Shown here: positions 11,637 to 28,838 of the stretch, piece after piece
Layout of the letters: the number at the start of each line of letters is the position of its first letter
Numbering within the stretch: the first letter of the stretch is position 1
DNA from: a virus
Reading direction: 5' to 3' (one strand)
Length of the DNA stretch: 64,000 nucleotides
IMG/VR virus record: IMGVR_UViG_3300012971_000018
Span: 32,001 to 96,000 of that record
Program-made: the position numbers and the translations under genes
The notes under the pieces: generated by a model
The model's input: only the letters and a program-made list of their open reading frames with translations
Told to the model about the DNA's origin: nothing
Database searches by the model: none

Positions 11637-12662
11637 GTGTTCGACTGGCCCCGCTTCCTAAGAGCGCGCGGGATTGCCTTTGTCACGCGGGGACCCAACG
11701 TCGGCGCAGGGCACGTCGGCGTTCGCTGTCCTTGGTGCGGCGCGGCGGACCCGTCCCAGCACCTCTCGATCTCCCTGCGCGGGAGTTCCTACCATTGTTG
11801 GCGGAACTCGCGGGCGCATTCGGGGTCCAGCCGGGCGTGGCTAATCCAGGCGCTGCTGCGCTGCTCCCCCGAGGAGGCCCGCCAGATCGCCGGGGAGGAT
11901 GCGGTTACCGCTACCCCGAGGGATGCGGACCTCTCGGCCCTTCTTGCAAGCCTCCTGGCCGGCCCTAGGGAGCCCGTACGCGCGATTTCCCTCGAATTAG
12001 GTCCCGAGCTACGGCCGCTCCGGCAAAACGTCGGGGTGGCCTCTATTTTCTGGGGCTACCTGCTCGACCGGGGCTTCGAGGAGCGGGACCTGCGGTGGGT
12101 TGCGGAGGCGTATGACCTCCGGTTTGCGATAAAGGGGGTCGACCGTTATCGGGTCGTTATCCCGGTTTATGGCGCCGACGGCCGGCTCGCGACGTGGACC
12201 GGGCGCTCGGTGCTCGTGGACGAGCGGCTACGCTATCGGACGCTGCCGATGCGTCCCCCGTTCCCCGGCTATTCCGGCCCGCTCGCGCGGCTTCCCACGA
12301 CGGACCTGCTCCTGGGGATGCAGGTTCTCCAGCGCGTTGCCAATCCCGAGACATTAGTCGTCGCCGAAGGACCGCTCGACGCGCTTAAGGTTTCCGCGCT
12401 CGGTCGGACCCGCGGCATCTACGGGACATGCCTGTTTGGACTTAACATGAGCGAGGCGCAAGCCTTGCAGATCGAACGGATAGCGACGAGGTTCCGGCGC
12501 GTCGTTGTCCTGCTGGACCCGGATGCACAGACGCTAAATTTGCGAGTGGCGTCGCGTACCATGTGCCCGATGTCCGTTGGCAAACTGCCGGATGGCGTCG
12601 AGGACCCGGGAGCACTAACGCGGAGGAGCTTCGACAAGTTTGTGGAGCTAAGTTATGGGTAA
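11637..12662 (+). CDS. DNA primase (Zn finger + TOPRIM)
   Basis: CPWC...HCW, VAEGPLDAL, LDPD, DPG. Confidence 0.85.
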   Translation: MFDWPRFLRARGIAFVTRGPNVGAGHVGVRCPWCGAADPSQHLSISLRGSSYHCWRNSRAHSGSSRAWLIQALLRCSPEEARQIAGEDAVTATPRDADLSALLASLLAGPREPVRAISLELGPELRPLRQNVGVASIFWGYLLDRGFEERDLRWVAEAYDLRFAIKGVDRYRVVIPVYGADGRLATWTGRSVLVDERLRYRTLPMRPPFPGYSGPLARLPTTDLLLGMQVLQRVANPETLVVAEGPLDALKVSALGRTRGIYGTCLFGLNMSEAQALQIERIATRFRRVVVLLDPDAQTLNLRVASRTMCPMSVGKLPDGVEDPGALTRRSFDKFVELSYG

Positions 12663-13254
12663 TGAGGCACAGGGAAAGTATCTGGACGATGCAGTGCGGG
12701 GCTACATCGTAAACTTCGCCCGCAAGCATTTCTGGCGGGTGTCGTCGTGGTACGAGTTCGACGATCTTGTTCAGGATGGCTACCTGGTCTACGCGAAGTG
12801 CCGCAAGGGGTTTACCCCGGGCGACGCGCCGGAGACCGAGCACCAACGGATGTTCATGGCCTACTTTAAGGGGGCGCTGCAAAACCACATAACCGACTTG
12901 CAGCAGGACCCCCGCTCGCAGCGCATCGAGGTCGCGGTCGCCGATCTTGCCGAGGGCACCAGCCTCGACGGCGAGCAGGACCTCGAAGAGGCGGTGGCCA
13001 CGATTATCGCCCGGGCACCGTCGGAGATCGTCGACCTGCTTAAGCGCATCTTCGTCGATGGGGCGACCGAGGTGCCTTTTCTGGTACGGACGAGGATGGT
13101 GAAACAGCACTTGCCGGGGGCCGCCGTAGCGCGTATAACGCGCTCGCGTTGTCCTATTCGGGAGACCAATATCCAGCGGATCGACCGCTGTCTCGGAGCA
13201 GGCTCTGCGGCTAAGTTGCGCCAGTTTCTTAATGAGAGTGCCGGTTTAGTATGA
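12655..13254 (+). CDS. sigma-factor-like protein
   Basis: region-2-like FDDLVQDGYLVY...FMAYFKGALQNHITD. Confidence 0.6.
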   Translation: MGNEAQGKYLDDAVRGYIVNFARKHFWRVSSWYEFDDLVQDGYLVYAKCRKGFTPGDAPETEHQRMFMAYFKGALQNHITDLQQDPRSQRIEVAVADLAEGTSLDGEQDLEEAVATIIARAPSEIVDLLKRIFVDGATEVPFLVRTRMVKQHLPGAAVARITRSRCPIRETNIQRIDRCLGAGSAAKLRQFLNESAGLV

Positions 13255-13287: not shown

Positions 13288-14043
13288 ATGCCCGAGACAA
13301 TGGAATTTAAGGATGGCATCTTTACCGCGACCACCCTCGACCCGAACGGCGAGACCGTGGTTTCGACGGCGTCCGCGGAGGATGTCCAGAAGGTGCTTAT
13401 CGAAGCGGCCAAGGTTAAGCGCAAGCCCGGCGAGACAGCGGAAGAGTTTACGACCCGACTGGTCCTAAAGCTTAACAGGATGGTGGATGAGTCGAAGGAC
13501 CTCTGGGCCAGTCTCGGCACGGTGGCACAGTTCTGGATGAACGAGAATGTTGGTCCGCTGGACGATCCGCCGCAGCCGGTTCTGTATTTGTTGAGTGTCG
13601 GGGAGGCCGAGGCCGAGCCCGAGCCCGAAGTGCAGGAGGAGACAGTGGAAGCATCTACCCACACGAATGGCGTAAAGCGCGCGAAGCCGGGCAGACCCAA
13701 GGCCGCCGCCAAGAAGGTACAGCCGGTTGTCCAGGCCGCCAAGAAGGCCAAGAAGGCCGCGCCGCCCAAAGCCAAGGCCAAGTCGATTAAGGCCAAGCTG
13801 GGCAGGCCGGCCAAGGTCGCCACCAAGAAGGCGGTGGATAACCGTGGCCGCGCGGCGACTTACGGTCTCGACCAGAAGATAAAGATGCTGGTTAAGAAGA
13901 ACCCGCACCGGGAGGGCTCCGGCCGCTACAAGCGGTGGCCGAAGTACCGGGATGGGATGACGGTCGGGGAGGCGCTAAAGGCCGGCTTTATCCGCCAGAA
14001 CCTGTACTGGTCGATCCAAGACGGCCACATCCAGATCAAATAA
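13288..14043 (+). CDS. Lys/Ala-rich putative DNA-binding protein
   Basis: H1-like KKAKKAAP tract plus C-terminal NPHREGS...GMTVGEALKAG domain. Confidence 0.6.
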   Translation: MPETMEFKDGIFTATTLDPNGETVVSTASAEDVQKVLIEAAKVKRKPGETAEEFTTRLVLKLNRMVDESKDLWASLGTVAQFWMNENVGPLDDPPQPVLYLLSVGEAEAEPEPEVQEETVEASTHTNGVKRAKPGRPKAAAKKVQPVVQAAKKAKKAAPPKAKAKSIKAKLGRPAKVATKKAVDNRGRAATYGLDQKIKMLVKKNPHREGSGRYKRWPKYRDGMTVGEALKAGFIRQNLYWSIQDGHIQIK

Positions 14044-14044
14044 C

Positions 14045-14842
14045 GTGGTCGTCGAGGGAACCCCGCTAGAGGACTATCTCGTCGAGTACGGTTTGGTTGT
14101 GAAGCGGGAGGACCTGTGCTGCCCCGACGGGCCACGGTTCTCGAAGGCGCGCGGCGTCTACGCACACATTAAGAAGCAGCCGACAAAGTCGATCGCCGTG
14201 CTCGACACCCTCCATTCGCGTGGAGGGTGGGCGGTCGCGCAGGCTTGTGCGCTGCTCGGCAAGCGCTGCCAAGTCTTCTTTCCGGTTCGGAAGTATGCCG
14301 ACGCCGTCCCTGGCCTGTACCAGCGCGCCGCGGCGAAGTTCGGTGCGGAGCTATGCCCTGTTCCGGCCGTACGCTCGGCGATCCTCTATTCGCAGGTACG
14401 GAAGACGCTCGGGGCCGACGTTTACCTAATGCCCAATGCGCTTAAGCTCGACGAGAGCATTTCCGAGACGGCAAGCGAAGTGCTGCGGACGAAGCTCCCG
14501 CCGGGGATATCCACCATGCTGGTCTCGGTGTCGTCGGGGACGATCGCGGCGGGGGTTATCTGTGGGCTGCGATCGGCGGGCTGGCGTGGGAACATACTTA
14601 TTCATTTAGGCTACTCCCGTTCGAAGGCGGGGTTGCTAAACTATATTCGGTCTCGACAGCCGTGGGGCGGCTATCCGCCGACAACAGCGATCGACGAGGG
14701 GTATGCTTATTCGGACGTAGCCCGGTCCGGCCAGACGCCACCGTTCCCGTGCGACCAGTACTATGATTTGAAGGCGTTTCGGTGGTGGGATGCGGTGGGC
14801 CGGGAGCGCTACAAGAGGGCCATATTCTGGAATATTGGCTAA
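14045..14842 (+). CDS. PLP-dependent enzyme (fold type II), putative DNA-linked amino-acid decarboxylase
   Basis: VKREDL...SKARG, SVSSGTIAAG, YYDLKA, FWNIG; location in modification cluster. Confidence 0.8.
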   Translation: MVVEGTPLEDYLVEYGLVVKREDLCCPDGPRFSKARGVYAHIKKQPTKSIAVLDTLHSRGGWAVAQACALLGKRCQVFFPVRKYADAVPGLYQRAAAKFGAELCPVPAVRSAILYSQVRKTLGADVYLMPNALKLDESISETASEVLRTKLPPGISTMLVSVSSGTIAAGVICGLRSAGWRGNILIHLGYSRSKAGLLNYIRSRQPWGGYPPTTAIDEGYAYSDVARSGQTPPFPCDQYYDLKAFRWWDAVGRERYKRAIFWNIG

Positions 14843-14843
14843 T

Positions 14844-15758
14844 ATGGCAACCAAGCATAAATATTCTTGTACTGATACTCATTGGACCTACGGCGCCGAG
14901 TTCGAGCTGGACGACTGGCCGCGAAACGAGCCGTTGCCGGATGGGATGCACATCGATTACGACTGGTCGCTGGTAAATTCCAACGGCGTGGCGGTCGACG
15001 GACCGGGCGAGCTGTACCATCTGGGCGGCGAAATCCTGGCCCGTCCGTCCAATACGGTTAGCGGGGTCGCCGACCAGCTTGCGACGATTATGCACAAGTG
15101 GCCGCAGATTACGATTAACCACCGGACCGGGGTCCACATTCATATTAGGGTGCCCGGGCTGCGCGACGACCTGGAGAAGCTAAAAACGCTCCAGCGCAAT
15201 ATCCACGCCTGGATGCCGATACTGCTCCCGCTGGTCGAGCCGATCCCGCTTCCCCGGCCGGGGTGCGGCCCGGTGTGGAAGGGGGAGATTTGGTGCTACA
15301 AGAGGTGGAAGAAGCAGCACCAATATCTGCTGGAACCGTGGCGGGTAGCGCGCCAGATGGCGGCGCGAACCCCGCGGGAATTCTTCGAGGCCGAGGCGCT
15401 CCACGTTCCGTCCGGGCGGGTGCCCTGGGCGACCCGCCCGCGAGCTTGCGTAAACCTCCGCCAACTCCTGCAAACCGATACGATCGAGTTCCGGCACTTC
15501 CCGGGCAGTACGTCTCCTCACATTGTGAAGAACTGGGGGCTGTGGTGCCAGTTATTTTTGGAGCTTGCTTTGGAGCTTGTTCTGGGCGAGGACATTCCGT
15601 ATGATTTGACGGAATTCCTAAAAGGCTGGCAGACGCCGAAGTTCCCTCCGTACGACCATTGGTTGGAGACCGGTTATCGGTTTACCTCGCGGCGCTACCA
15701 TTCGAAGGACGAGGTCCGGGCGAACATAAAGACGTGGTTGGGAAGGAAGCGACCATGA
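14844..15758 (+). CDS. amidoligase-family protein in the modification cluster
   Basis: TYGAEFE, GGEILARP, TGVHIHI, TIEFRHFPGS. Confidence 0.75.
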   Translation: MATKHKYSCTDTHWTYGAEFELDDWPRNEPLPDGMHIDYDWSLVNSNGVAVDGPGELYHLGGEILARPSNTVSGVADQLATIMHKWPQITINHRTGVHIHIRVPGLRDDLEKLKTLQRNIHAWMPILLPLVEPIPLPRPGCGPVWKGEIWCYKRWKKQHQYLLEPWRVARQMAARTPREFFEAEALHVPSGRVPWATRPRACVNLRQLLQTDTIEFRHFPGSTSPHIVKNWGLWCQLFLELALELVLGEDIPYDLTEFLKGWQTPKFPPYDHWLETGYRFTSRRYHSKDEVRANIKTWLGRKRP

Positions 15759-16405
15759 AGCGGTTGGCGATCGTTACCGGGGCGGCTGGGGGCATTGGCA
15801 AGGCCGTTTGCGATAAGTTCCGGCAAGATGGTTGGGATGTCGTTGGCGTCGATATCGAGACCGACTGCGGGATTGGGAGATACGATGTGTCCGATCCGGG
15901 TGCAGTGCGCGAGCTTTTCCAAAAGATTAAAGGGGGCCGGAGCGAGAGGAAGGCGTTGGTAAACTGTGCGGGAGCGATCGAGTTCAATTCGATCCCCGAC
16001 ACTACTCTCCAAGACTGGAACCTTATGCTCCAGCATAATCTAACGACGGCGTTCGTTATGACCCGCGAGTTTGCCAAGTTCGGGTTGGGGACGATTGTAA
16101 ATGTTAGCTCGGTTAACGCGACCCTTTCGAGCGAGCACCGGGTAGGCTATGCGGCGGCGAAGGGCGGCATCGAGGCGTTTACCCGCATTTCGGCAACCCA
16201 GCTCGGCCCTAATATCCGGGTTAATTGCGTGGCGCTGGGGCCGATCCAGACCCGACAGGCAAACGGCCTGTCGCGACGGAATGTGCTGGGCCGGATCGGC
16301 TTGCCGGTCGAGGCGGCGGACCCGATCGTGTGGCTCTGTGGCGATGGAGCGTCGTACATTACCGGAGCAACGCTGGCAGTGGATGGGGGCTACGGGCTTA
16401 TTTAG
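15755..16405 (+). CDS. short-chain dehydrogenase/reductase
   Basis: TGAAGGIG, NCAG, VSS, YAAAK, VDGG. Confidence 0.92.
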   Translation: MKRLAIVTGAAGGIGKAVCDKFRQDGWDVVGVDIETDCGIGRYDVSDPGAVRELFQKIKGGRSERKALVNCAGAIEFNSIPDTTLQDWNLMLQHNLTTAFVMTREFAKFGLGTIVNVSSVNATLSSEHRVGYAAAKGGIEAFTRISATQLGPNIRVNCVALGPIQTRQANGLSRRNVLGRIGLPVEAADPIVWLCGDGASYITGATLAVDGGYGLI

Positions 16406-16414
16406 GAGGGCCGA

Positions 16415-16771
16415 ATGGTGGTGTCTGCTCGGTGGGCAAATCGAGAGGATGCTCAACTAGATGGATACGGTATATTCTGGTGCGATGGGAAATCGCATCG
16501 TGCCCATCGTTGGATTTTTGAGAGGTGTGTTCGTAAGCTTAAGCCTTATGAGCAGGTTCTACATAAATTCGATAACACATGCTGCGTTAATTTAGACTGT
16601 TTGTATGTGGGAACCCACGCGGATAACATGCGGGACCTTCGCGAGCGGGGTAATGCTAAGGGCATTCCAAAGAGTGAGGAATGGAAGCGAAAAGCTCGTG
16701 CTGTCCCACAAGAAGTCCGCCGTCGTGCGGCTTTATTGGCTTGGAGACGTCGCCATGCAAAGCGAACTTGA
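16415..16771 (+). CDS. free-standing HNH homing endonuclease
   Basis: AHRW...VLHKFDNTCCVN...GTHADNMRD; lower GC. Confidence 0.8.
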   Translation: MVVSARWANREDAQLDGYGIFWCDGKSHRAHRWIFERCVRKLKPYEQVLHKFDNTCCVNLDCLYVGTHADNMRDLRERGNAKGIPKSEEWKRKARAVPQEVRRRAALLAWRRRHAKRT

Positions 16772-18137
16772 TTGGATTAACCAGGACACCGCTAAGGAAA
16801 CGTACAATTACTACATGCGTACCGACCCGTCTATGCGCGAGATACTCGGCCCTATCGAGGAAGTATACGATGAGCACACAGGTCGGAAAATGCGTAGGCG
16901 GTTAGCAAAAGTGGCGATGATCCGAGGCTCAAAAGACGGTAAGGAAACTATAATCTATCTAGACCCGCTGCCACATGTTAGACTTGACAAGGCCAAGGAT
17001 TTGCAAGGTTGGTACAGTGGAAAAACAGACGGTGCTACTCGTGGGCAAAGAGACCGTCCTTGTATGACGGATGCTATCCTTACCCAACCCTATGGGGGCA
17101 CTTGCGAGGTCCAATGTGGGTTTTGCTACGTGAATTCTGGGTTTAGAGGATATCGCGGAGCTGGATTGACTACAGTTCCAATGGGATATGGAACGCATGT
17201 GCGCGCGCAGCTTAGTTCTATGAAGGTTGCTACGGCTGGATATTTTACGAGCTTTCACGATCCTTTCAACAGTTTGGAGGAGTACTACCACAACACCCAG
17301 CAGGGAGCCCAGGCATTTGTTGATTATGACCTTCCAATATTCTTCCTATCGCGGCTGTCCTATCCGGAGTGGGCGATAAACCTGCTACGTACTAACCCTT
17401 ACAGCTACGCGCAGAAATCGATCAATACGCCGGACCCCGAGGATTGGAAGAAGCTAAGCCCGGGTGCGCTGCCGCTCGCCGACCACTTCGCGGAGATTGC
17501 CAAGCTGCGCGCGGCCGGCATCTACGTGTCGATCCAGGTTAACCCCGTCGTCCCCGGCATTACGACCCACGAGGAGGTGGAGCAGCTATTCGAGAAGCTC
17601 GCCGCGGCCGGTGCCAACCACGTAATCGTTAAGTTCGTCGAGGCGAGCCACGCCTGGGTCGGCGCGATGGTGGAGCGGATGGCTACCCGGTTCGGCGCCA
17701 ACCGGGCGGCGCATTTCCGCGAGCTGTTCGTCGAGAATTCCTGCGGCGGGCAGAAGACCATAGCCGAGGAGTACCGGCGCGAGGGCCATACGCGGTACCG
17801 TAAGCGGGCTACTGAATTGGGGATGACCTATGCGTTGTGCTACGAGTACACGCGCACGCCCGACGGCTGGAAGTCGATGGGACCGGAGTTTCTAACGTCG
17901 GAGCAGTGCCACGGCCACCGGGTGCCGATGCATGTGCGACGAATGGGCAGATTTAGTCCGCTCTCGGTATGTCCTCCATCGGGGTGCCTGTCGTGCGCCG
18001 ACGAGAGCGGGAAAGGAAAATGCGGTTCGACCCTGCTCGGAGCGGCGAAGGCACTACGGATATCCGATTTGCGCAAGGATTGGGATGGAGACCCGGAGCA
18101 TGTTAGGACCCGCCGAGTTCGGGCGCCAGCTAATTAA
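16755..18137 (+). CDS. radical SAM enzyme (putative DNA-base isomerase)
   Basis: CEVQCGFC (CxxxCxxC); start MQSEL after GGAG; extra C-terminal Cys cluster. Confidence 0.85.
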   Translation: MQSELDWINQDTAKETYNYYMRTDPSMREILGPIEEVYDEHTGRKMRRRLAKVAMIRGSKDGKETIIYLDPLPHVRLDKAKDLQGWYSGKTDGATRGQRDRPCMTDAILTQPYGGTCEVQCGFCYVNSGFRGYRGAGLTTVPMGYGTHVRAQLSSMKVATAGYFTSFHDPFNSLEEYYHNTQQGAQAFVDYDLPIFFLSRLSYPEWAINLLRTNPYSYAQKSINTPDPEDWKKLSPGALPLADHFAEIAKLRAAGIYVSIQVNPVVPGITTHEEVEQLFEKLAAAGANHVIVKFVEASHAWVGAMVERMATRFGANRAAHFRELFVENSCGGQKTIAEEYRREGHTRYRKRATELGMTYALCYEYTRTPDGWKSMGPEFLTSEQCHGHRVPMHVRRMGRFSPLSVCPPSGCLSCADESGKGKCGSTLLGAAKALRISDLRKDWDGDPEHVRTRRVRAPAN

Positions 18138-18876
18138 GACCGGAGACCTCGATCCGGTCTACATCGCCATTAACGGTGCAAAGCTCCCCCACAAGCAACT
18201 GGCCAAGCTCCTGTTCGCCTATTGGTGTTTCTACCATCTGGGCCTCGCGGCGTGGCTATCCGAGCAGAAACACTATTGGCGATCGATGCGGACCGCGGCG
18301 GAGAACGTAACCGAGACCCCGTACGGCGGTCCCTGGCCGCGCGGTACGGAGCGTCGCCACTTCCGCGGTTACCTGGCGGTGCGTGCGGTGGACATCCTGT
18401 CGAGGAAGTCCCCCGAGGCGTATGTCGAGGCTCTGTTGAAGATGCGGACCGTGGCGGAGATTATGGGCGCTACCAGCCAATGGCCGCTGTTTGGACCGTG
18501 GATCGGCTACAAGATTGCGGATATGGTCGATCGGTGTCTTGGCTCTCCGGTCGAGTTTACCCCGGACGTCTGCCTGCTCTACAAGGAGCCCCGGGCCGCA
18601 CTCGATCTTATCCCCGGGGCGGTTTCGGCCGAGCAGAAGCTGGTCGATTTGCTGGGCGAGCTGGACGACCAGAAAGCCCCGCCAACGGGCGACCGGGCGC
18701 TGGGCTTCGCCGAGGTCGAGACCGTGCTGTGTAAGTGGAAGTCCTACCGTAGCAAGCATTATTTCATTGGGAAGGACATCTACGAGGTGCGCCACCACTT
18801 GGCCCATTGGGGTGCGGGCACGATGCTAAAGGCCATGCCGGCGGTGCCGTTCATATTCCGGGGGCGGATGCCATGA
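18100..18876 (+). CDS. amino acid:DNA transferase (aGPT-Pplase2 family)
   Basis: GDLDPVY, RGTERRHFRG, FGPWIGYKIADM, EVETVLCKWKS. Confidence 0.8.
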   Translation: MLGPAEFGRQLIKTGDLDPVYIAINGAKLPHKQLAKLLFAYWCFYHLGLAAWLSEQKHYWRSMRTAAENVTETPYGGPWPRGTERRHFRGYLAVRAVDILSRKSPEAYVEALLKMRTVAEIMGATSQWPLFGPWIGYKIADMVDRCLGSPVEFTPDVCLLYKEPRAALDLIPGAVSAEQKLVDLLGELDDQKAPPTGDRALGFAEVETVLCKWKSYRSKHYFIGKDIYEVRHHLAHWGAGTMLKAMPAVPFIFRGRMP

Positions 18877-19436
18877 TCGTTAATGTGCGCGGCGGGAGCG
18901 GAAGTGGCAAGACCCATGTGGTGCGCGAGCTAATGAATGGCGGCAGGCCGGTCTCGCTCTATGGGGTGCTAGGGATAAAGTATCCCGAAGCCTATCGGGT
19001 CTCGCTCCCAGGCGTAACGCAGCCCCTGCACATTATCGGACCCTACACGACGAACGTCGGGGGATGCGACAGGCTGTCCTACGATAAGATCATTCCTCTG
19101 CTGGAGAAGTACGAGAAGCGGGGCCACGTCCTGTTCGAAGGTCTGCTCGTATCGGACAACTACGGCATTATCGGAGAGTGGCTTACCAAGCGCGGCCACA
19201 ACGCGCTTATCGTGTTCCTGGATACTTCGCTGGCAGTATGTCTGGAACGGCTGCGCATCCGTTCGGGCTACGATGCAGACTTGCGGAAGCCGCTAACGAC
19301 GGTGGCCATGCGGTACGAGACCATAAAGCGCGCGAAGGCAAAGTTCGAGAAGGAAGCCAAGGTTAGCCTGCTCGAAGTTTCCTCGACAAGCGCGGCGGAC
19401 CAGATACACCAATGGATAATTGACAATGATAGATGA
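18873..19436 (+). CDS. P-loop kinase, putative 5-hmdU DNA kinase
   Basis: NVRGGSGSGKT, GGCD, LFEGL; adjacent to the transferase. Confidence 0.8.
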   Translation: MIVNVRGGSGSGKTHVVRELMNGGRPVSLYGVLGIKYPEAYRVSLPGVTQPLHIIGPYTTNVGGCDRLSYDKIIPLLEKYEKRGHVLFEGLLVSDNYGIIGEWLTKRGHNALIVFLDTSLAVCLERLRIRSGYDADLRKPLTTVAMRYETIKRAKAKFEKEAKVSLLEVSSTSAADQIHQWIIDNDR

Positions 19437-20301
19437 ACAACTGCATTGGTTTACGCACTGGGTATCCGAGCGCGAGAAGGTTCGGATCGCCAAGCTGGGC
19501 GGCGCCCGGCCGCCGTGGACGAACGACCCGATTATCGCCAAGTACCGGTTCTGTAACGTCCGGCGGAAGGACGATCGCGTCTCGCGCTGGTTAATCAAGA
19601 ATGTCCTTACCGCGGAAATCTTCCACCGTGTCGGCCCCAAGGCGTTTATGGAGTTTACCGCGTTCTGCCGGTGGAACAATTGGCCGCCGTCGATCGGTGC
19701 GGTCTTAGAGCGCGATCTTTTGCGGCCTAGCATCGATTGGGGTGCCGTCGTGCGGGTCCTGCAAGATCGCAAGCGGCGCGGGGAGAAGGTGTGGACGGGT
19801 GCCTACGTGGTCTATGCCGATGCCAAGACCGACAAGGCGGAATACGTGGCCAGTGTCGCGCGGGCCGTCGGCGAGATGTGGGACCGGCTACAGACCGATA
19901 CCCGGATTGGATATCGCCAGCGGGTGTGGGAGACGCTAACCGATATCCGTGGCATGGGCTCGTTCATGGCTGGGCAGATCGTCGACGATTGGACGTGGAC
20001 ACCGTTGCTGTGGCTATCGCGCGATCTCTACGAATGGGCGCCGCAAGGCCCGGGGTCGCTGCGGGGGCTAAACCGGATTATCGGCCACCCGCTTACCCAG
20101 AGCATAATTATGAACGACTGGATGGCCCATCTTAACGCTTGCCGCAGGCACATAATCGAGACGCTTGGCAAGGACTATCGCAACCTTACGGCGCACGATG
20201 TGCAGAATTGCCTGTGCGAGTTCGACAAGTACATGCGGGTTAAGAACGGGGAAGGCAAGCCGCGGTCGACGTACCAGCCGGAGACGGGGTATGTGGTATG
20301 A
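19420..20301 (+). CDS. aGPT-Pplase1 family protein (thymine hypermodification)
   Basis: ERE...PWTNDPIIAKYRFCNVRRKDDRVS, GPGSLRGL, QNCLCEFDKY. Confidence 0.88.
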   Translation: MTMIDEQLHWFTHWVSEREKVRIAKLGGARPPWTNDPIIAKYRFCNVRRKDDRVSRWLIKNVLTAEIFHRVGPKAFMEFTAFCRWNNWPPSIGAVLERDLLRPSIDWGAVVRVLQDRKRRGEKVWTGAYVVYADAKTDKAEYVASVARAVGEMWDRLQTDTRIGYRQRVWETLTDIRGMGSFMAGQIVDDWTWTPLLWLSRDLYEWAPQGPGSLRGLNRIIGHPLTQSIIMNDWMAHLNACRRHIIETLGKDYRNLTAHDVQNCLCEFDKYMRVKNGEGKPRSTYQPETGYVV

Positions 20302-20501
20302 GTAAGAAACCTGTCGGCTACTTCGTCTGGACCCGCCGTAATGGCAGGCTGTCCCCCCGGAAGTATGGCGAGGACTTCCACCGTGCCGGTCGCAAGGATG
20401 GCACAGAATACGACCACGATGCCCCACCGGCTTATCCACTAACCGAAGCCGAGTGGGGTATGTCTTTGGACGAGCTGGCAAGGAGATATCCGCATGGGTA
20501 G
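20298..20501 (+). CDS. hypothetical protein
   Basis: ATGA-coupled ORF. Confidence 0.55.
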   Translation: MSKKPVGYFVWTRRNGRLSPRKYGEDFHRAGRKDGTEYDHDAPPAYPLTEAEWGMSLDELARRYPHG

Positions 20502-20892
20502 CCAAGCAGGACGCAAAGTACAGAGCTGGGTTAGCACCCCGCAGGGCTGTTTTCTTAAGGGGCTCCTGCATGCTCTTGGGAACCGGGGATGGATGGACAT
20601 GGGGCTGCGTGGAAGTGCCTATAACGAATACGTCTACAGGCATTACGCTCGCCTCGTGCCTTACCACCAGGATTATTGGGAACGTCCGCGGACCAAAAAG
20701 AGCATTGTGGGTCGCGCTATGACCACGACAAGATCGCACCATGCTTCGAGGGAGAATGCATTCGAAAATGACTATACTGCGCCATACATGGGATTGGTCT
20801 TTAATCTGTTGGAGCGCGACAAGCCCTGGGAACGTGCGGAGCTGGACGCGCGTATCGCGCGTATCGCTGCGATAGCAGCGAGGGCGGCATGA
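20494..20892 (+). CDS. hypothetical protein
   Basis: fills the gap, overlaps neighbouring genes. Confidence 0.45.
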   Translation: MGSQAGRKVQSWVSTPQGCFLKGLLHALGNRGWMDMGLRGSAYNEYVYRHYARLVPYHQDYWERPRTKKSIVGRAMTTTRSHHASRENAFENDYTAPYMGLVFNLLERDKPWERAELDARIARIAAIAARAA

Positions 20893-21446
20893 CCCCGTTG
20901 GAGCGCGTAATTGCGATCCGGACCGGCGGCGGCACCGAGCGCGCCCACGGCATTCGCCACCATGGCTCCTATTCGGTCGCCAGCCATACATGGGGCGTTC
21001 TAACGCTGGTCTACGTGCTGTGGGGACCCGAGTTCTTTGCCCGGGTCGCCGCCGCGGTAACGTTCCACGACGTTCCCGAGGCTTGGGTCGGCGACATCCC
21101 GGCGCCGACGAAGCGTTACAATATGTCGGTTAAGCTCGCGGTCGACCAGATGGACCAAGCCGTGCTTAAGCGGCTCGATCTGCTTACGCCGTACGTGGGT
21201 CTTAGCTTAGAGGACAAGGCCAGGATTAAGGCCGCGGACATGCTGGAGCTGTATCTGTGGGCGGCGGAGGAAGTCGCGGGGGGCAACAGGCACGCCGCCT
21301 GTCTTATGCGGGAGCTAATACGCTATTTCGGCGAGCAGAGGATGCCGGACGAGTTCTACCCGATATGGACGGAGCTTGCCACCGGCGGCAGCGTAGAGCA
21401 CGCGAGCGACGGCCTTATCTACGAGATAAACAAGAAAGCGGAATAG
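20889..21446 (+). CDS. HD-domain nucleotidase (YfbR-like)
   Basis: SVASH, FHDVPEAWVGDIPAP, KAADMLE. Confidence 0.85.
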   Translation: MTPLERVIAIRTGGGTERAHGIRHHGSYSVASHTWGVLTLVYVLWGPEFFARVAAAVTFHDVPEAWVGDIPAPTKRYNMSVKLAVDQMDQAVLKRLDLLTPYVGLSLEDKARIKAADMLELYLWAAEEVAGGNRHAACLMRELIRYFGEQRMPDEFYPIWTELATGGSVEHASDGLIYEINKKAE

Positions 21447-23336
21447 ATGATTACACTTATGGTGGGTTCGGTGGACGAGGCGCTCTGTCGGGGCGTCGCG
21501 CTCCTGCGCAAGGTCGGCGTAAAGCAGACGTCCCGGGCCGGCGATGTGTGGGTCGCACCCAGCCCGGTTACGACGATCTTCCACGATCCGGTAAAGCGGG
21601 TGCTGTTTAATGCGCATCGCGATGCCAATCCGTTCTTCCATCTGTTCGAAAGCCTGTGGCTGCTGGCCGGTCGCGACGATGCTACGTGGCTGGACCAGTT
21701 TGTCGGCGACTTCTCTTCGCGCTTCGCCGAGAGCGACGGAGTGCTCCATGGTTCCTACGGCCACCGGTGGCGGGAGGCGCTCGGCCTCGACCAGCTATTT
21801 GAGGTCGTGGAGAAGCTAAAGGCCAACCCCGACGATCGGCAATGCGTCCTCCAGATGTGGGACGCGCGGGACGACTGGCACGCGGATGGAGAGTATTCCG
21901 CGCACTCCGGATGCAACGATTTGCTAGGCAATTGGAAGGATCGGCCGTGTTTGGCGGGGGATACCGTTGTGTGGTCGCCCGAGGGGGACCTTCCTATTGC
22001 TGCGTTGGCGGAAAAGTTTGCGGCTGGTGTAAAACGTTGGCCCGTTTATTCCGTGAACGAGATGTCCAAGAAGTTGGAGATAAGGTGGGCTACAAATTGC
22101 TGGAGAAGCGGACGAAGGCGTACTGTAGTTCTAACTTTTGATGATGGTACGTCAATTCGAGCAACAGCGGACCACGTATTTTACGTATATCCTAAGAGGA
22201 TTGGTAGAAATGGGAAGGTAAGCGCCTTGGCGGCAAAACCGTGTCGGGTAGATAAGCTGCGGCCGGGGGATCGGGTATTAGCAACACAGCGGTTTTCCGG
22301 CAAGAAGGGCCACGAGGTAATTAAAAAGTGTTTGGCCGGGAATACGGCCTTTCGCAATATGCAGCAGACGCACAATGCGTATTATCGTCTTGTGTATGGC
22401 TCAATTCCAGAAGATTGTGAGCTTCATCATGTAGACGAAGTTAAGCGTAACAATAAGATCGCCAATTTGGAGCCACTCGATCCAGGAGAACATAGCCGAT
22501 TGCACAAAGTTGGGGATCGAAATCCGATGAGAAACATGACGGCTGCGCAGCACCGAGCGCGTGGTCGTAAGCAGTCGGTGTCGCTAAAGGCTGCTTGGGC
22601 TAAGCTTACTCCGATGCAGCGTGTTGCGAGATCGAAGGGTCTCCCCATAACCAACCACAGGATTGTTAGTATCGGTCCGGGACCGATCGAGGATGTATAC
22701 GATTTTACGGTTCCCGGTTTCCACACTGCAATAGTTGGTACTGGTGTGGTAACTCATAATTGCAACACCCATGCCTACCTTCGGGTTCGGGATGGGCTCT
22801 TGGACCTTACGGTGTGCTGCCGGTCGAACGATATTATCTGGGGCGCATACGGTGCCAATGCTGTGCAATTTTCCATGCTGCAAGAGTACCTCGCGGCGCG
22901 GATCGGCGTCGGCGTCGGCATCTATTACCAGATTAGCAACAACTACCACGCTTACGACAATGTTATCGACTGGAGCTTGGGCGAGAAGAACGCGCTAACG
23001 GATTGGGGGTGGTCGTACCGGGACTTCTGTGTCGAGCCGCTTGCGTTGGTTACCAATCCGGAGACGTTCGACCGGGAGCTGTCGTGCTTCTTTAAGCGGC
23101 CGGAGAGTTTTCTTCCGCTCGATCCCGTCCTTGCCCTGCGCACAGGTGGGCGGAACGAGTACGAGAACTTGTTCTTCCCTCGGGTAGCTGTCCCGCTTTA
23201 CCGCGCCATTCGGACGTGGAAGGACAAAGCGGTAGAGGACCGGAAGAAATTGGCAATACAGGAGTTGGATAGCGCACCAGCCGAGAACGACTGGAAGCTG
23301 GCCGCCCAGCAGTGGATGCAGAAGAGGATTAAATGA
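21447..23336 (+). CDS. thymidylate synthase-family enzyme, likely dUMP hydroxymethylase, intein-containing
   Basis: RDANPFFH, GSYGHRW, RSNDIIWGAYGAN, NYHAY; catalytic PC restored after splicing. Confidence 0.85.
   Translation: MITLMVGSVDEALCRGVALLRKVGVKQTSRAGDVWVAPSPVTTIFHDPVKRVLFNAHRDANPFFHLFESLWLLAGRDDATWLDQFVGDFSSRFAESDGVLHGSYGHRWREALGLDQLFEVVEKLKANPDDRQCVLQMWDARDDWHADGEYSAHSGCNDLLGNWKDRPCLAGDTVVWSPEGDLPIAALAEKFAAGVKRWPVYSVNEMSKKLEIRWATNCWRSGRRRTVVLTFDDGTSIRATADHVFYVYPKRIGRNGKVSALAAKPCRVDKLRPGDRVLATQRFSGKKGHEVIKKCLAGNTAFRNMQQTHNAYYRLVYGSIPEDCELHHVDEVKRNNKIANLEPLDPGEHSRLHKVGDRNPMRNMTAAQHRARGRKQSVSLKAAWAKLTPMQRVARSKGLPITNHRIVSIGPGPIEDVYDFTVPGFHTAIVGTGVVTHNCNTHAYLRVRDGLLDLTVCCRSNDIIWGAYGANAVQFSMLQEYLAARIGVGVGIYYQISNNYHAYDNVIDWSLGEKNALTDWGWSYRDFCVEPLALVTNPETFDRELSCFFKRPESFLPLDPVLALRTGGRNEYENLFFPRVAVPLYRAIRTWKDKAVEDRKKLAIQELDSAPAENDWKLAAQQWMQKRIK
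21948..22760 (+). mobile_element. intein with in-frame HNH domain
   Basis: CLAGDT...ATADH...LHHVDEVKRNN...VYDFTV...THN/C; 271 aa. Confidence 0.92.
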
Positions 23337-23767
23337 CAAACTATGTCGCGCAGGTCGGTGGCGACCACTACAAGTCGGCGTACGCGCATTGGGACCTCGC
23401 GATCGATATTCGTTGGGGCTATCTCGACGGTTCCGCGGCGAAGTACATATCGCGGTGGCGCAAGAAGGGTGGGGTCCAAGACCTGCGCAAGGCGCTAAGC
23501 TACATCGACAAGCTAATTGGGACGTTGGCGACCGAGAAACAGCAGCTTCCGCCGGCTGTTGCAAACACTCTCCAATTGGAACGGTTTTGCGATGCGCATG
23601 GCTTCGTTAAGGGTTCGCTGGAGCGGACTGCAATAATTTATCTGGGGTCGTGGGCGTTTCGCAGCGACCTCGAAGTCGCGCGGGTAGCAGTGGTGGAGCT
23701 TATCGCCGAAAACGAGGTCCCGACGACCGACAGTAACAAGCACGCCAAGCAGGAGGAGCAATGCTAG
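23333..23767 (+). CDS. DUF3310-family protein
   Basis: QVGGDHY, KYISRWRKKGGVQDLRKA. Confidence 0.8.
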   Translation: MTNYVAQVGGDHYKSAYAHWDLAIDIRWGYLDGSAAKYISRWRKKGGVQDLRKALSYIDKLIGTLATEKQQLPPAVANTLQLERFCDAHGFVKGSLERTAIIYLGSWAFRSDLEVARVAVVELIAENEVPTTDSNKHAKQEEQC

Positions 23768-25370: not shown

Positions 25371-28300
25371 ATGGGGTTGTTGTATGCGGCCCAGGCTACA
25401 GTCGATGTTAGGGCGCGCCAGGAAGCCGTGCTCTACCAACGGATGGGCTGCAATATGTGCCCGCTTAACGATGTGCAGCCGGGGCGCGCCAATGCGACGG
25501 GTTCGGAGCATCCGCTAATATTATTCATAGGCGAAGCCCCCGGCAAGGAGGAGCAACGGACCGGCGAGCAGTTCGTCGGCGAGTCCGGGCAACTTCTGCG
25601 CCCGCGCATCCCGGAGGAATGGCTGCCGGATATTCGATGGACCAATACTGTTCATTGTCGTCCCTCGTATGGCAACGGCCACAATCGGACCCCCGAGCAC
25701 GACGAGATCGAGTGCTGCCGGCCGCGGTGGGTTGCCGACATCGAACGGACCAAGCCGAAGGCGATCTTTGCTTTCGGTAACGTCCCACTCCTGGCGATTA
25801 CCAACTTTACCGGCATAACGCTGTGGCGCGGGAGGCGGCTGCCGGTAAGGATCGGGTCGCACGTCTGCTGGCTCTATCCCATGCTCCATCCGGCCCACAT
25901 CCTGCGCCAGCGGCGGGACGAGGATCGTGGCAAGGATGCCAGGTTTGTTGGCTCCGAAGAGGAGCGGATGTTCGAGTTCGATCTCTACAAGGCATTGGAC
26001 GAGGTCGACGCCGGACTGCCACGGCCGATCGTCCACGACGAGAAGGAAGCCCGCCGCGGCGTCGAGATTGTAACCGAGGGCGGGCGGGAAGGGCTGCACC
26101 GGATCGAGGCCGCGCTTAGGTGGGCGTCCGCGCAGGACGATATCGGGTTCGACTACGAGACGCTGGGGCTACGGCCGTATGGTGCCAATGCCAAGATACT
26201 TACGGTCGCGGTCGCGACTGCGGACCGTGCGATTGCGTTTCCGATCCACCATCGCGAAGCCCGGTTCTCCGACAAGGAGCGCAAGACAATCGAGGATTTG
26301 GTCTGCAATTTCCTGTGCCAGTCCGGGCGTGTGTGGGTGCATAATCTGTCCTTCGAGATGGAATGGACGGCGGTTAAGTTCGGCCGCGACCTGCTGTACG
26401 CTACGCAGTGGCAGGACACGGCGACGCAGGCTTCCATTATTGACGAGCGGAAAGGCAATACCAAGCCGGGATGCTTTTCCCTCGAATGGCTCGTAATGCA
26501 GTACTTCGGCTTTAACCTTAAGAAGCTGTCCCCGCTAAACAAAGCTAATCTCGACCGCGAGCCGCTGCCAAAGGTGCTCGCCTATAATGCGATGGACGCC
26601 AAGTACCATCTGCGGCTTGGGCTGGAGCAGCAGGTAGTCATAAAGCAGCAGGGTCTGCAATCGGTCTACGAGCTGTCGTTGCGGCGGGTGCCGGCGGTCG
26701 TTACGTCGCAGGTCCTGGGCGTGCCGGTCGACCAGGACGAGAACGAGCGTCTGCACGCCAAGTACGCCAAGCGGGTCGCCAGCCTGGAGGCCGAAATCCA
26801 GCAGGTGCCGTTAATCCAGGGGTACAACAGCGACAACGCCGAGCCGTTTAACCCCGGCTCGAACCCGCAGTGCGTCGACGTTTTCTATCGGCGGCTAAAG
26901 CGCAAGGAGTGTCTGGTCGTCGACAAGTTCTCCAAGCGGGAGCGGCTGTCCTGCAATGAAGACGTACTAACCAAGATCGAGCACCCGCTGTCGAAGCTAA
27001 TCGTCCGCTGGCGCAAGGCGAAGCGGCAGGACTCGACCTACATCCAAGCATTGGCCCCGGGGACCGAGAATTCGGCGCTGTGGCCCGACGGTCTTCTGCA
27101 TAGTACGTTCAACACTTACTGGGTCGAGACCGGCCGGCTAAGCTGCTCGGCCCCTTGGACCGAGGTTAAGACCAGTCGTGGTGTGGTCCAGATCAAGGAC
27201 GTTATTGCAGGCGATTTGGTGTGGACCCACAGACAACGCTGGCGTTTAGTTACGCGGGCTTGGAGCAAAGGCTTCGAACAGATGTTCGACGTTGTATTGT
27301 CTAATGGGAAAGTTTTGACTTGCACCAAAAACCACCGTCTGCTATCCAAGGCCAGTGGCTGGATAACGGTTGGAGAGTTGTATGACGTATTCCAAGAGAT
27401 GGGTCGAGACGCCGGGGAATATAAAGCGCGTACTGGCGCTTTATCGCAGCAAGGAGTTGGTTCCAACAGAGCAGATAGCCAAGACGTTGGGCACATCGGT
27501 ACCAAACGTCTACGAGGCTATCAAACGGAACATGCCATTGGTCGAGAAGCAGGCTCTATCATCTGTTCGCTATTCGGCATCGAAGCTGGGCACAAAAAAT
27601 CCGATGCTGGGGCGAACTGGAGATCGGCATCCGAATTGGAAGGGGGAATGTTTGGATGGTCATGGTGGTTATTTGACCATAAAGGTTGGAAAGCGTCGTA
27701 TTTTTCTCCACCACCACTTGCTTATGCAGGCATTGGGTCTACCAGAAGTCCCACGCGGTTGGATGGTACACCATATCGATGGCGACCCGTTGAACAACGA
27801 CGTGGACAATTTGGCTTTGGTGACGGCTCGCGGACACAAAGCTATCCACTACAGACAGTTGGAGACCAAGACGTTGCGATTAAAGAAATCAAAGCTGGCG
27901 GAAGCTTTGAAGTATTTGATCTAACAGTAGAGGAGGACGCCAGCTATGAGACCTGTGGAGTATTTTCGCACAATAGCGAATTTCCAAACCTTCAGAATTT
28001 CCCGAAGCGCGACGGCGAGGCCGTCGAGGTCCGCCGGCAGGTCCAGGCCGCCCCTGGATATAGTATCATATCTCTGGACCTGGGCCAGATCGAAGCCCGT
28101 GTCGTCGCGATGTTTACCAAGGACCCGGTCTATGTAAAGCAATTGTGGGACAAGTTCGACATCCACAAGGATTGGGCCGAGCGGATCGCTTTCGCCTATC
28201 CGGATCGGATCGGCGGGTCGAAGAACCTAAAAGACCCGAAGGTAATGAAGACCTTTCGCAGTGACATAAAGAACCAGTGGACCTTCCCTCTGCTCTACGG

Positions 28301-28838
28301 TGCATCGTGCAAGTCGGTGGCTGGTTCTCTAAGCATTCCCGAGGACAAGCTAACGCCGCTGTACGACCAGTTCTGGAGCGAGTTCTCGACGGTAAAGAAA
28401 TGGCAGGAGGACCAGCTAAGGTTCTACCGTCGGCACGGCTATGTGGAATGCCTAACCGGCCGTCGGCGCCACGGTCCGCTGTCCCTTAACAAGGTCTACA
28501 ACACCCCGGTCCAGGGCACCGCAGCCGAGATAATCATGGACCGTATGTGTTACATGGTCGAGAGCGGCGATCCCGAGCTGCTGCCCGAGCTGCAAATCCA
28601 CGACGATCTAACCTTCCTGCGGGTGCGGGAGGAACGGGCCGAGGAAGTCGCGGGGAAGATATTGGACATTATGCTGGACCTGCGGCACTTCCCATGGGTG
28701 AACGTGCCGATATCCGTCGAGGTGGCAACCGGCTTTAACTGGATGCCTTGGGACAAGGACAACAACCCGGAAGGGCTAAGGGCGATGCCGGAAAGCTATT
28801 TCTCGAACGAGTGGCTAAAGGCGAGAGGAATAACATGA
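25371..28838 (+). CDS. DNA polymerase A with N-terminal family-4 UDG domain and 3'-5' exonuclease, intein-containing
   Basis: GEAPG/HCRP/HPA (UDG); DYET, HN, YNAMD (exo); TGRLS..PNLQN, DLGQIEAR, QIHDDL (PolA). Confidence 0.93.
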   Translation: MGLLYAAQATVDVRARQEAVLYQRMGCNMCPLNDVQPGRANATGSEHPLILFIGEAPGKEEQRTGEQFVGESGQLLRPRIPEEWLPDIRWTNTVHCRPSYGNGHNRTPEHDEIECCRPRWVADIERTKPKAIFAFGNVPLLAITNFTGITLWRGRRLPVRIGSHVCWLYPMLHPAHILRQRRDEDRGKDARFVGSEEERMFEFDLYKALDEVDAGLPRPIVHDEKEARRGVEIVTEGGREGLHRIEAALRWASAQDDIGFDYETLGLRPYGANAKILTVAVATADRAIAFPIHHREARFSDKERKTIEDLVCNFLCQSGRVWVHNLSFEMEWTAVKFGRDLLYATQWQDTATQASIIDERKGNTKPGCFSLEWLVMQYFGFNLKKLSPLNKANLDREPLPKVLAYNAMDAKYHLRLGLEQQVVIKQQGLQSVYELSLRRVPAVVTSQVLGVPVDQDENERLHAKYAKRVASLEAEIQQVPLIQGYNSDNAEPFNPGSNPQCVDVFYRRLKRKECLVVDKFSKRERLSCNEDVLTKIEHPLSKLIVRWRKAKRQDSTYIQALAPGTENSALWPDGLLHSTFNTYWVETGRLSCSAPWTEVKTSRGVVQIKDVIAGDLVWTHRQRWRLVTRAWSKGFEQMFDVVLSNGKVLTCTKNHRLLSKASGWITVGELYDVFQEMGRDAGEYKARTGALSQQGVGSNRADSQDVGHIGTKRLRGYQTEHAIGREAGSIICSLFGIEAGHKKSDAGANWRSASELEGGMFGWSWWLFDHKGWKASYFSPPPLAYAGIGSTRSPTRLDGTPYRWRPVEQRRGQFGFGDGSRTQSYPLQTVGDQDVAIKEIKAGGSFEVFDLTVEEDASYETCGVFSHNSEFPNLQNFPKRDGEAVEVRRQVQAAPGYSIISLDLGQIEARVVAMFTKDPVYVKQLWDKFDIHKDWAERIAFAYPDRIGGSKNLKDPKVMKTFRSDIKNQWTFPLLYGASCKSVAGSLSIPEDKLTPLYDQFWSEFSTVKKWQEDQLRFYRRHGYVECLTGRRRHGPLSLNKVYNTPVQGTAAEIIMDRMCYMVESGDPELLPELQIHDDLTFLRVREERAEEVAGKILDIMLDLRHFPWVNVPISVEVATGFNWMPWDKDNNPEGLRAMPESYFSNEWLKARGIT
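27144..27974 (+). mobile_element. intein in PolA
   Basis: CSAPWT...CTKNHRL...VFDLTVEE...SHN/S; 277 aa. Confidence 0.9.
27382..27924 (+). CDS. HNH endonuclease overprinted in the +1 frame inside the intein
   Basis: GGAG RBS at 27372; HPNWKG, VHHIDGDPLNNDVDNL...HKAIH. Confidence 0.85.
   Translation: MTYSKRWVETPGNIKRVLALYRSKELVPTEQIAKTLGTSVPNVYEAIKRNMPLVEKQALSSVRYSASKLGTKNPMLGRTGDRHPNWKGECLDGHGGYLTIKVGKRRIFLHHHLLMQALGLPEVPRGWMVHHIDGDPLNNDVDNLALVTARGHKAIHYRQLETKTLRLKKSKLAEALKYLI

Follow-up and report, generated by a model that had tools for sequence, protein, structure and literature searches.

A phage gene cluster of the M6 thymidine-hypermodification type with an added amidoligase and short-chain dehydrogenase/reductase: a candidate route to an N-acylated aminoethyl-uracil

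Organization of the gene cluster

The stretch of viral DNA considered here, termed the window, comprises bases 32001-96000 (64,000 nucleotides) of the 111,906-bp IMG/VR virus record IMGVR_UViG_3300012971_000018, a metagenomic contig from an uncultured phage that has direct terminal repeats and a completeness rating of 100%. Between positions 14045 and 23767 of the window lies a run of genes, all on the + strand, that resembles the thymidine-hypermodification cluster of Pseudomonas phage M6 and additionally encodes an amidoligase and a short-chain dehydrogenase/reductase (SDR). In order, these genes specify a pyridoxal phosphate (PLP)-dependent enzyme, the amidoligase, the SDR, a free-standing HNH endonuclease, a radical S-adenosylmethionine (rSAM) enzyme, an amino acid:DNA transferase (ADDT, or aGPT-Pplase2), a P-loop kinase acting on 5-hydroxymethyl-2′-deoxyuridine (5-hmdU) in DNA, the helical protein HMUDK_hel, two small open reading frames (ORFs), an HD-domain hydrolase, a thymidylate-synthase homologue and a DUF3310 protein.

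Every gene named in the initial annotation of this locus is found at the position reported there, on the + strand and tightly packed, with the refinement that the true starts of several ORFs lie later than the longest-ORF start. Junctions between the genes are 1-nt gaps or ATGA overlaps, and a consensus scan finds no more promoter- or terminator-like sites inside the cluster than in shuffled sequence; the layout therefore looks like that of one operon. The cluster region has no nucleotide match by megablast among 50,697 phage records.

An M6-type core

In phage M6, gp54 has been shown experimentally to phosphorylate 5-hmdU in DNA and gp51 to add glycine, giving N-α-glycinylthymidine (N-α-GlyT); gp53 then converts N-α-GlyT to C-α-glycinylthymidine (C-α-GlyT), and gp52 decarboxylates this to 5-(2-aminoethyl)-2′-deoxyuridine (5-NedU) (PMC8989533). 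Every gene of this pathway has a homologue in the window, at 31-59% identity and with catalytic residues kept, and the correspondence to the M6 route that the initial annotation had proposed for the core holds gene for gene when the window proteins are compared with those of M6 by BLASTP. The same logic, in which hmdU passes through 5-phosphomethyl-deoxyuridine (5-PmdU), N-α-GlyT and C-α-GlyT to 5-NedU, thus appears to be encoded in both phages.

The PLP-dependent enzyme (14045-14842; PHROG 7093, E 3e-63) is the orthologue of M6 gp52, with which it shares 46% identity over its full length (E 4e-71), and it retains the SK(A/I)RG Schiff-base lysine that aligns to gp52 K36. The rSAM enzyme (16755-18137, with the ATG at 16755 as the most likely start; PHROG 9252, E 1e-183) is the orthologue of gp53, at 59% identity, and has the features of an SPL-like isomerase with a second cluster, conserving both the CxxxCxxC motif (C125, C129, C132) and seven further invariant cysteines; its nearest cultured relatives are found in M6-like Pseudomonas phages (59%) and in Bordetella phage MW2 (55%). 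The ADDT, a predicted glycine:DNA transferase located at approximately 18100-18876 (alternative start 18085), matches PF18724 (E 8e-11, 42.5 bits) and is 38% identical to gp51. All 12 of the 12 active-site residues of the PaMx11 transferase gp46 are conserved in it, including the nucleophile Cys247 and the glycine-binding residues Trp146 and Lys150.

The P-loop 5-hmdU DNA kinase (18873-19436), whose ATG overlaps the ADDT stop codon as ATGA, is recognized by its homology to gp54 (33% identity, E 3e-15), its match to PF18748 being weak (22.6 bits, cut-off 27). It is followed by HMUDK_hel, formerly aGPT-Pplase1 (19426-20301; PF18723, E 2e-44), which is 31% identical to gp55. Further downstream lie the HD-domain protein, a 5′-deoxynucleotidase-like hydrolase (20889-21446; YfbR-like, E 3e-10) with 36% identity to gp59, and the DUF3310 protein (23333-23767; PF11753), with 34% identity to gp61. 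Between the two is the thymidylate-synthase-fold enzyme (21447-23336), a predicted dUMP hydroxymethylase that gives matches to Thymidylat_synt, HNH_3 and Intein_splicing. Its length of 629 aa is due to a 271-aa HNH intein (21948-22760), a feature that sets it apart from its M6 counterpart. The intein begins at Cys168 and ends in THN, followed by Cys439, and its insertion point lies just ahead of the Cys in the P-C motif of the thymidylate-synthase fold; on either side of it, identity to gp58 is 44% and 40%.

By its gene content, then, the cluster belongs to the kinase/ADDT class of thymidine hypermodification systems and, within that class, to the M6 type. It cannot be assigned to the PaMx11 type, since it has neither a flavin adenine dinucleotide (FAD)-dependent lyase nor a GNAT acetyltransferase: PaMx11 gp47 (the FAD lyase) and gp48 have no tblastn match in the window, and no match to Acetyltransf_1/GNAT exists in the whole 112-kb genome. 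Synthesis of 5-(2-aminoethyl)-dU as the base of the pathway is well supported by orthology, and the M6-type enzymes here would accordingly furnish a primary amine. Several differences from M6 are nevertheless apparent. The gene order is rearranged (PLP-amidoligase-SDR-HNH-rSAM-ADDT-kinase), the phage has a 112-kb genome as compared with the 60-kb Yuavirus genome of M6, and no homologue of the window amidoligase or SDR is found by BLASTP among M6 gp49-gp62. Among the loci examined, an M6-type arm, an amidoligase and an SDR occur together in this genome only.

A predicted glutamine-synthetase-fold amidoligase

The amidoligase gene (14844-15758; 304 aa) starts a single base beyond the stop codon of the PLP gene, and its product falls within PF12224 (Amidoligase_2). 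The Pfam model matches 12 of 20 members of the family, at best with E 2.7e-8, and a profile of the amidoligase has no match to PDB sequences at E up to 1. An AF2 model built on 20 homologues has a mean pLDDT of 90 and a pTM of 0.89, and in a search of ~48,000 chains its top 19 structural matches (Z 5.6-10.1) are all ligases of the glutamine synthetase (GS), glutamate-cysteine ligase (GCL), YbdK and PafA-Dop groups, GmaS included, with the next match at Z 4.7. The highest score belongs to the YbdK-like (YbdK/GCS2) structure 1tt4 (Z 10.1), followed among the named enzymes by E. coli GCL (9.0), GmaS (7.9) and PafA (7.3). Foldseek agrees on the ligase fold with a probability of up to 0.97, although TM-scores are low. 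The motifs that are invariant across the family alignment (ExE, GGE, NxR, HxHxRxPG, RxxxNLRQ and TDTxEFRH) are all present in the window protein. The protein is best described as a predicted ATP-dependent carboxylate-amine ligase with a GS/GCL-type fold. From the precedent of the γ-glutamyl-amine ligases of the GS superfamily, its reaction would be expected to pass through an acyl phosphate that a primary amine then attacks. Relative to these enzymes, the window amidoligase is minimal in size, and the acceptor proposed for it is an amine on a DNA base.

The family to which this protein belongs is small and nearly all viral. Searches of 1.84 billion representative sequences yield 416, 324 and 186 clusters at E thresholds of 1e-3, 1e-10 and 1e-30, respectively, and 185,579 species genomes yield five matches, all on contigs of metagenome-assembled genomes (MAGs), three of which show further kinase/ADDT cluster genes. 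Some members of the family also occur as fusions with a 5-hmdU DNA kinase domain, a TET-associated glycosyltransferase (TAGT) domain, a class II glutamine amidotransferase (GATase) and, repeatedly, a low-molecular-weight (LMW) phosphatase (P0243, P0273, P0315, P0343 and P0247, plus other LMWPc fusions). As judged from these domain architectures, the fusions tie the family to DNA-level chemistry.

Genomic context of the amidoligase family

Homologues of the amidoligase and the SDR in viral contigs were sought with alignment-based scans; single-sequence pattern scans of the contigs returned nothing for either protein. The window was compared, by tblastn and all-against-all ORF clustering, with 44 viral contigs encoding an amidoligase homologue, with phage Simon and with MAG contigs. 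Among the 46 clustered loci (the 44 viral contigs, phage Simon and the window), a P-loop kinase is present in 33, an ADDT in 29, and HMUDK_hel and a thymidylate-synthase homologue in 26 each. Nine further loci have a divergent ADDT directly beside the amidoligase, together with a class II GATase, and most of these also encode a TET/JBP oxygenase and a P-loop kinase. The initial annotation had made its reading hinge on whether these genes are linked to transferase clusters in related phages, and for the amidoligase such linkage to transferase and kinase clusters is conserved across about 50 independent loci. Co-occurrence of this kind has been noted before: in the IMG/VR contigs of Lee et al. 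(2021; PMC8989533), amidoligase and glutamine-amidotransferase Pfam matches accompany 5-HMUDK and aGPT-Pplase2, with no function assigned to them. The metavirome clusters of that study (its Figure 2 and Discussion) are of the same kind as the cluster in the window.

The genes that precede the amidoligase step are of two sorts. A PaMx11-type FAD lyase is present in 25 of 51 amidoligase loci, and the M6-type PLP and rSAM pair is present in the remainder of the loci whose amidoligase follows an amine-producing route. The PaMx11-type FAD enzyme has been tested and gives a primary amine (PMC8989533). In the family tree, the amidoligase has come together with a PLP and rSAM context on at least three separate occasions, and the window amidoligase groups, with support of 100/99, with the ligases of FAD-type clusters.

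In phage PaMx11, the pathway to 5-acetylaminomethyl-dU employs the gp46 transferase, the gp47 FAD lyase, the gp48 GNAT acetyltransferase and the gp49 kinase (PMC8989533, PMC11472151). An acetyltransferase of the gp48 type is found in none of the 51 amidoligase loci. Similarly, among 77 further ADDT-anchored loci, which together cover 1.1 Mb, 11 have an amidoligase and seven have gp48, and none has both. In phage Simon (PQ683277), the sole full-length match to the window amidoligase in the 50,697 phage records, the amidoligase gene resides between those of the FAD enzyme and the kinase, which is the position of gp48 in PaMx11. The amidoligase thus follows either of the two amine-producing routes, never co-occurs with the gp48-type acetyltransferase and, in one phage, holds its position, and for these reasons the base amine is its likely acceptor. 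Acylation of a free amine, as the initial annotation had suggested, is accordingly the role that best fits the comparative data. The concept would be the same as in PaMx11, where a primary amine on the base is unmasked and then capped as an amide, but the rSAM/PLP route of the window would yield an aminoethyl rather than an aminomethyl group, and capping would be carried out by an ATP-dependent ligase of the GS fold rather than by an acetyl-CoA-dependent enzyme.

Individual loci illustrate the variety of these clusters. Phage Simon (PQ683277.1, 6039-24926; locus L001) is an unannotated sewage phage with a PaMx11-like cluster, in which the amidoligase and an LMW phosphatase stand where PaMx11 has its acetyltransferase. 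The three nearest relatives are 110-137 kb in length (L004, 10779-12065; L005, 10047-11243; L006, 10888-12054), and two of them (L004 and L005) share the surrounding gene framework with the window phage. In all three, an FAD lyase, an amidoligase and a radical SAM/SPASM enzyme take the place of the PLP enzyme, amidoligase, SDR, HNH endonuclease and rSAM enzyme of the window, so that, on gene content, the sibling phages have swapped tailoring cassettes. At an M6-type locus (L043, 630-7191), genes for a glutathione-synthetase-like ATP-grasp ligase, an aspartate/ornithine carbamoyltransferase-like protein and a JmjC/cupin hydroxylase come after that of the amidoligase, a gene set which suggests that a peptide-like chain may be built on the base.

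The short-chain dehydrogenase/reductase and the adjoining HNH gene

The SDR gene (15755-16405; 216 aa) begins at an ATG that overlaps the amidoligase TGA as ATGA, an arrangement that couples its translation to that of the amidoligase, and its product is a classical SDR (adh_short_C2, E 4e-39). The protein contains the motifs TGAAGGIG, NCAG, HNLT, VSS and YAAAK and the N-S-Y-K catalytic residues, and it looks catalytically intact. An invariant Asp is found at the end of β2; in SDRs, an Asp at this position usually goes with NAD preference, and the window enzyme probably prefers NAD as well. Its isoelectric point (pI) is 8.3, and all of the cluster proteins for which this value was computed are basic. 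The SDR falls below the cut-off of the FabG 3-oxoacyl-ACP reductase equivalog. A functional parallel may be seen in YmfI, a FabG-like SDR that acts on elongation factor P, where it reduces 5-aminopentanone. YmfI is likewise of the classical type, and what it modifies is a side chain that a macromolecule already carries; the window SDR scores 102 bits against the NCBIfam model of YmfI, for which the cut-off is 238, and the comparison is one of analogy only.

The closest homologues of the SDR (P0123-P0126) are metagenomic proteins of 44-50% identity, and an alignment of the SDR against viral contigs gives matches of no more than 32% identity. None of the 85 loci retrieved by two SDR alignment scans, of viral and of metagenome contigs, contains a hypermodification gene; the matches listed for the metagenome contigs were dominated by generic SDRs, and the closest homologues were not among the loci retrieved. 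A predicted complex of amidoligase and SDR received a score of 0.00, which carries no weight either way. In published accounts, the term "short-chain" is absent from the main text of PMC8989533, in which "dehydrogenase" is used only for PaMx11 gp47, and a text search of one later paper on phage Carin-5 and one on alpha-dapT finds no ligase or SDR assigned to such a pathway. The slot that follows the amidoligase is occupied by other enzymes in related clusters: in most relatives by an LMW phosphatase, in the three nearest relatives by an rSAM-SPASM enzyme, and at L043 by the ATP-grasp ligase, carbamoyltransferase-like protein and JmjC hydroxylase described above.

Nucleotide composition offers a signature of genes that are native to this genome. 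Across the window, TCA and TGA together are observed 382 times against an expectation of ~1370-1520, a roughly four-fold depletion, and TTA and TAA together 1399 times against ~1000 expected. The TCA/TGA depletion, which is used here solely as a signature of native composition, holds for each gene of the cluster in turn, though less strongly for the HNH gene. The SDR gene has a native composition by this measure (three TCA/TGA observed, 13.5 expected) and has a GC content at third codon positions (GC3) of 0.71.

Between the SDR gene and the rSAM gene, the start of which it overlaps, is the gene for the HNH homing-type endonuclease (16415-16771; HNH_3, E 2e-4). Its GC content of 0.50 and GC3 of 0.43 are unlike those of its neighbours, and it has a strong ribosome-binding site of its own, with TAGGAGG upstream of the ATG; the gene looks to have arrived recently. 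Matches to it by tblastn (E <=1e-4) are found beside the PLP gene at one amidoligase locus (L019) and in five of the 77 ADDT-anchored loci. That the SDR and HNH genes arrived together recently was considered and judged unlikely, because the composition of the SDR gene is native and that of the HNH gene is not.

Flanking and accessory genes

Immediately upstream of the cluster, and separated from the PLP gene by a 1-nt gap, is a + strand gene for a 251-aa protein (13288-14043) with no Pfam, PHROG or NCBIfam match. In the nearest relatives it accompanies the cluster, its homologues lying upstream of the clusters in L004, L005 and L136, the last of these a MAG contig. Just upstream, at 12655-13254, is a sigma-70-like protein with weak matches to Sigma70_r2 and TIGR02937, homologues of which are likewise found upstream in L004, L005 and L136. 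Within the cluster, two small overlapping + strand ORFs (20298-20892) separate HMUDK_hel from the HD hydrolase; these encode proteins of 67 aa (20298-20501) and 132 aa (20494-20892) without family matches. Downstream of the cluster, at 25371-28838, is a family-A DNA polymerase with an N-terminal uracil-DNA glycosylase (UDG) domain and an intein. A 2026 publication (PMC13697223) describes PolA enzymes fused to UDG in phages with T-modified genomes.

Proposed pathway and alternative explanations

The window probably contains an operon for post-replicative thymidine hypermodification that follows the phage M6 type and is extended by a tailoring arm, although this overall reading is held with some reserve. 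By orthology to tested enzymes, the thymidylate-synthase homologue would supply 5-hmdUMP, from which hmdU is built into DNA, and the P-loop kinase would phosphorylate hmdU in the polymer. The ADDT would then exchange the phosphate for glycine to give N-α-GlyT, the rSAM enzyme would isomerize N-α-GlyT to C-α-GlyT, and the PLP enzyme would decarboxylate the latter to 5-(2-aminoethyl)-dU. Gene context suggests that the amidoligase, using ATP, could activate the carboxylate of a small molecule and join it to the primary amine of the base. The product of this step would be an N-acyl-aminoethyl-uracil, the counterpart of what acetyl-CoA-dependent capping by gp48 achieves in PaMx11, and the SDR may subsequently oxidize or reduce the appended group. 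The final base is thus probably an undescribed N-acylated aminoethyl-uracil.

The finer points of this scheme are proposed with less assurance. As a tentative leading guess, the acyl donor could be the γ-carboxylate of L-glutamate, because every structural neighbour of the amidoligase activates that group. The initial annotation had offered γ-glutamylation as an example of such chemistry; the data do not support it, and it is a guess from precedent. Participation of the SDR in the pathway is somewhat less probable than its non-participation, and a sequence in which the amidoligase acylates 5-(2-aminoethyl)-dU, perhaps with a γ-glutamyl group, and the SDR then carries out a redox reaction on the DNA-attached moiety is, taken as a whole, rather unlikely. 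Of the interpretation given in the initial annotation, then, the M6 core, the linkage of the amidoligase and amine acylation as its best-fitting role are upheld, and the linkage of the SDR and γ-glutamylation are not.

Several observations count against the scheme. All of the functions are assigned by homology and gene context, and the core enzymes are 33-59% identical to those of M6, such that substrate or product could differ. The match of the amidoligase to PF12224 is borderline (22.4 bits, cut-off 22), and to our knowledge its subfamily has no characterized member. Most relatives pair the amidoligase with an LMW phosphatase of unexplained role, whereas no LMW phosphatase, class II GATase or GNAT is found in the whole 112-kb genome. 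Part of the amidoligase family is linked or fused to a class II GATase, an arrangement that suits the amidation of a carboxylate equally well. The remaining objections concern the SDR. It matches generic FabG-like models only, reaching at best 121 bits where the NCBIfam equivalog cut-offs are 222-332, and it adjoins a mobile HNH gene. Its linkage to hypermodification clusters, which the initial annotation had expected to find, is not conserved: a homologue is detected in none of 127 other cluster loci (50 other amidoligase loci and the 77 ADDT-anchored loci), nor, in a search accompanied by a positive control, in any of 27 whole phage records that contain the amidoligase, the two nearest complete genomes among them.

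It could therefore be that the SDR is a passenger, that is, a lineage-specific auxiliary metabolic gene that acts on a host metabolite and was possibly brought in beside the HNH endonuclease, and that the pathway ends with the product of the amidoligase. This explanation accommodates the absence of SDR homologues from all of the related loci and records, the derivation of its best homologues (44-50% identity) from metagenomic proteins, its sub-threshold matches to generic FabG-like models and the proximity of the low-GC HNH gene. It is less easily reconciled with the overlap of the SDR start with the amidoligase stop, with a GC3 and a TCA/TGA depletion that are like those of the surrounding genes and unlike those of the HNH gene, with a basic pI of the kind found throughout the computed cluster proteins, or with the location of the gene within the operon, in the slot that other tailoring enzymes occupy in relatives. 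The chances that the SDR is a passenger are evenly balanced.

For the amidoligase, two other roles can be envisaged. Conceivably, it activates a DNA-borne carboxylate, that of N-α- or C-α-glycinylthymidine, and adds ammonia or a free amine to form a base of the glycinamide type. One clade of amidoligases adjoins a class II GATase domain and one family member is fused to such a domain, the usual layout of amidotransferases, and the GATase loci are devoid of the FAD enzyme and of PLP and rSAM enzymes that could unmask an amine. On the other hand, the ligase is kept together with carboxylate-removing enzymes in 25 of 51 loci, by way of the FAD lyase, and in the window, by way of a PLP decarboxylase 46% identical to gp52; it is never found alongside the amine-capping acetyltransferase, the PaMx11 position of which it holds in Simon. 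Because the window genome has no GATase and does have a decarboxylase that removes the carboxylate, this role is improbable here. Alternatively, the amidoligase might act away from DNA, on a small metabolite or a protein, with the DNA carrying plain 5-(2-aminoethyl)-dU as in M6. Members of PF12224 are in general uncharacterized, and in the ADDT-anchored set 27 of 28 loci with the M6-type rSAM and PLP pair do without an amidoligase, a single one having it. However, nearly all members of the family lie within kinase/ADDT clusters, cellular genomes contain hardly any, and some are fused to 5-hmdU DNA kinase and TET-associated glycosyltransferase domains; an off-DNA role is accordingly very improbable. 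Acylation of the amine of 5-(2-aminoethyl)-dU thus remains the preferred role for the amidoligase.

Implications

Hypermodified thymidines shield the DNA of phages against the nucleases of their hosts, and the pathways that make them supply enzymes for the chemistry of DNA labelling and sequencing. Within these pathways, the amidoligase family, with ~190-400 sequence clusters that are almost wholly viral, represents a recurrent and unexplained last step. The present analysis gives this family a testable role, namely the capping of an amine in place of the acetyltransferase. The window provides a compact M6-type cluster with an amidoligase, for which the natural DNA of M6, containing 5-NedU, could serve directly as a substrate. 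If the SDR does take part, redox chemistry would be added to the known tailoring reactions of DNA, and this would be the first case of redox tailoring by an SDR in a DNA hypermodification pathway of the kinase/ADDT type. The different cassettes carried by sibling phages, FAD and rSAM-SPASM enzymes in some and PLP, rSAM and SDR enzymes in the window phage, suggest that the bases of these viruses diversify rapidly and in a modular fashion.

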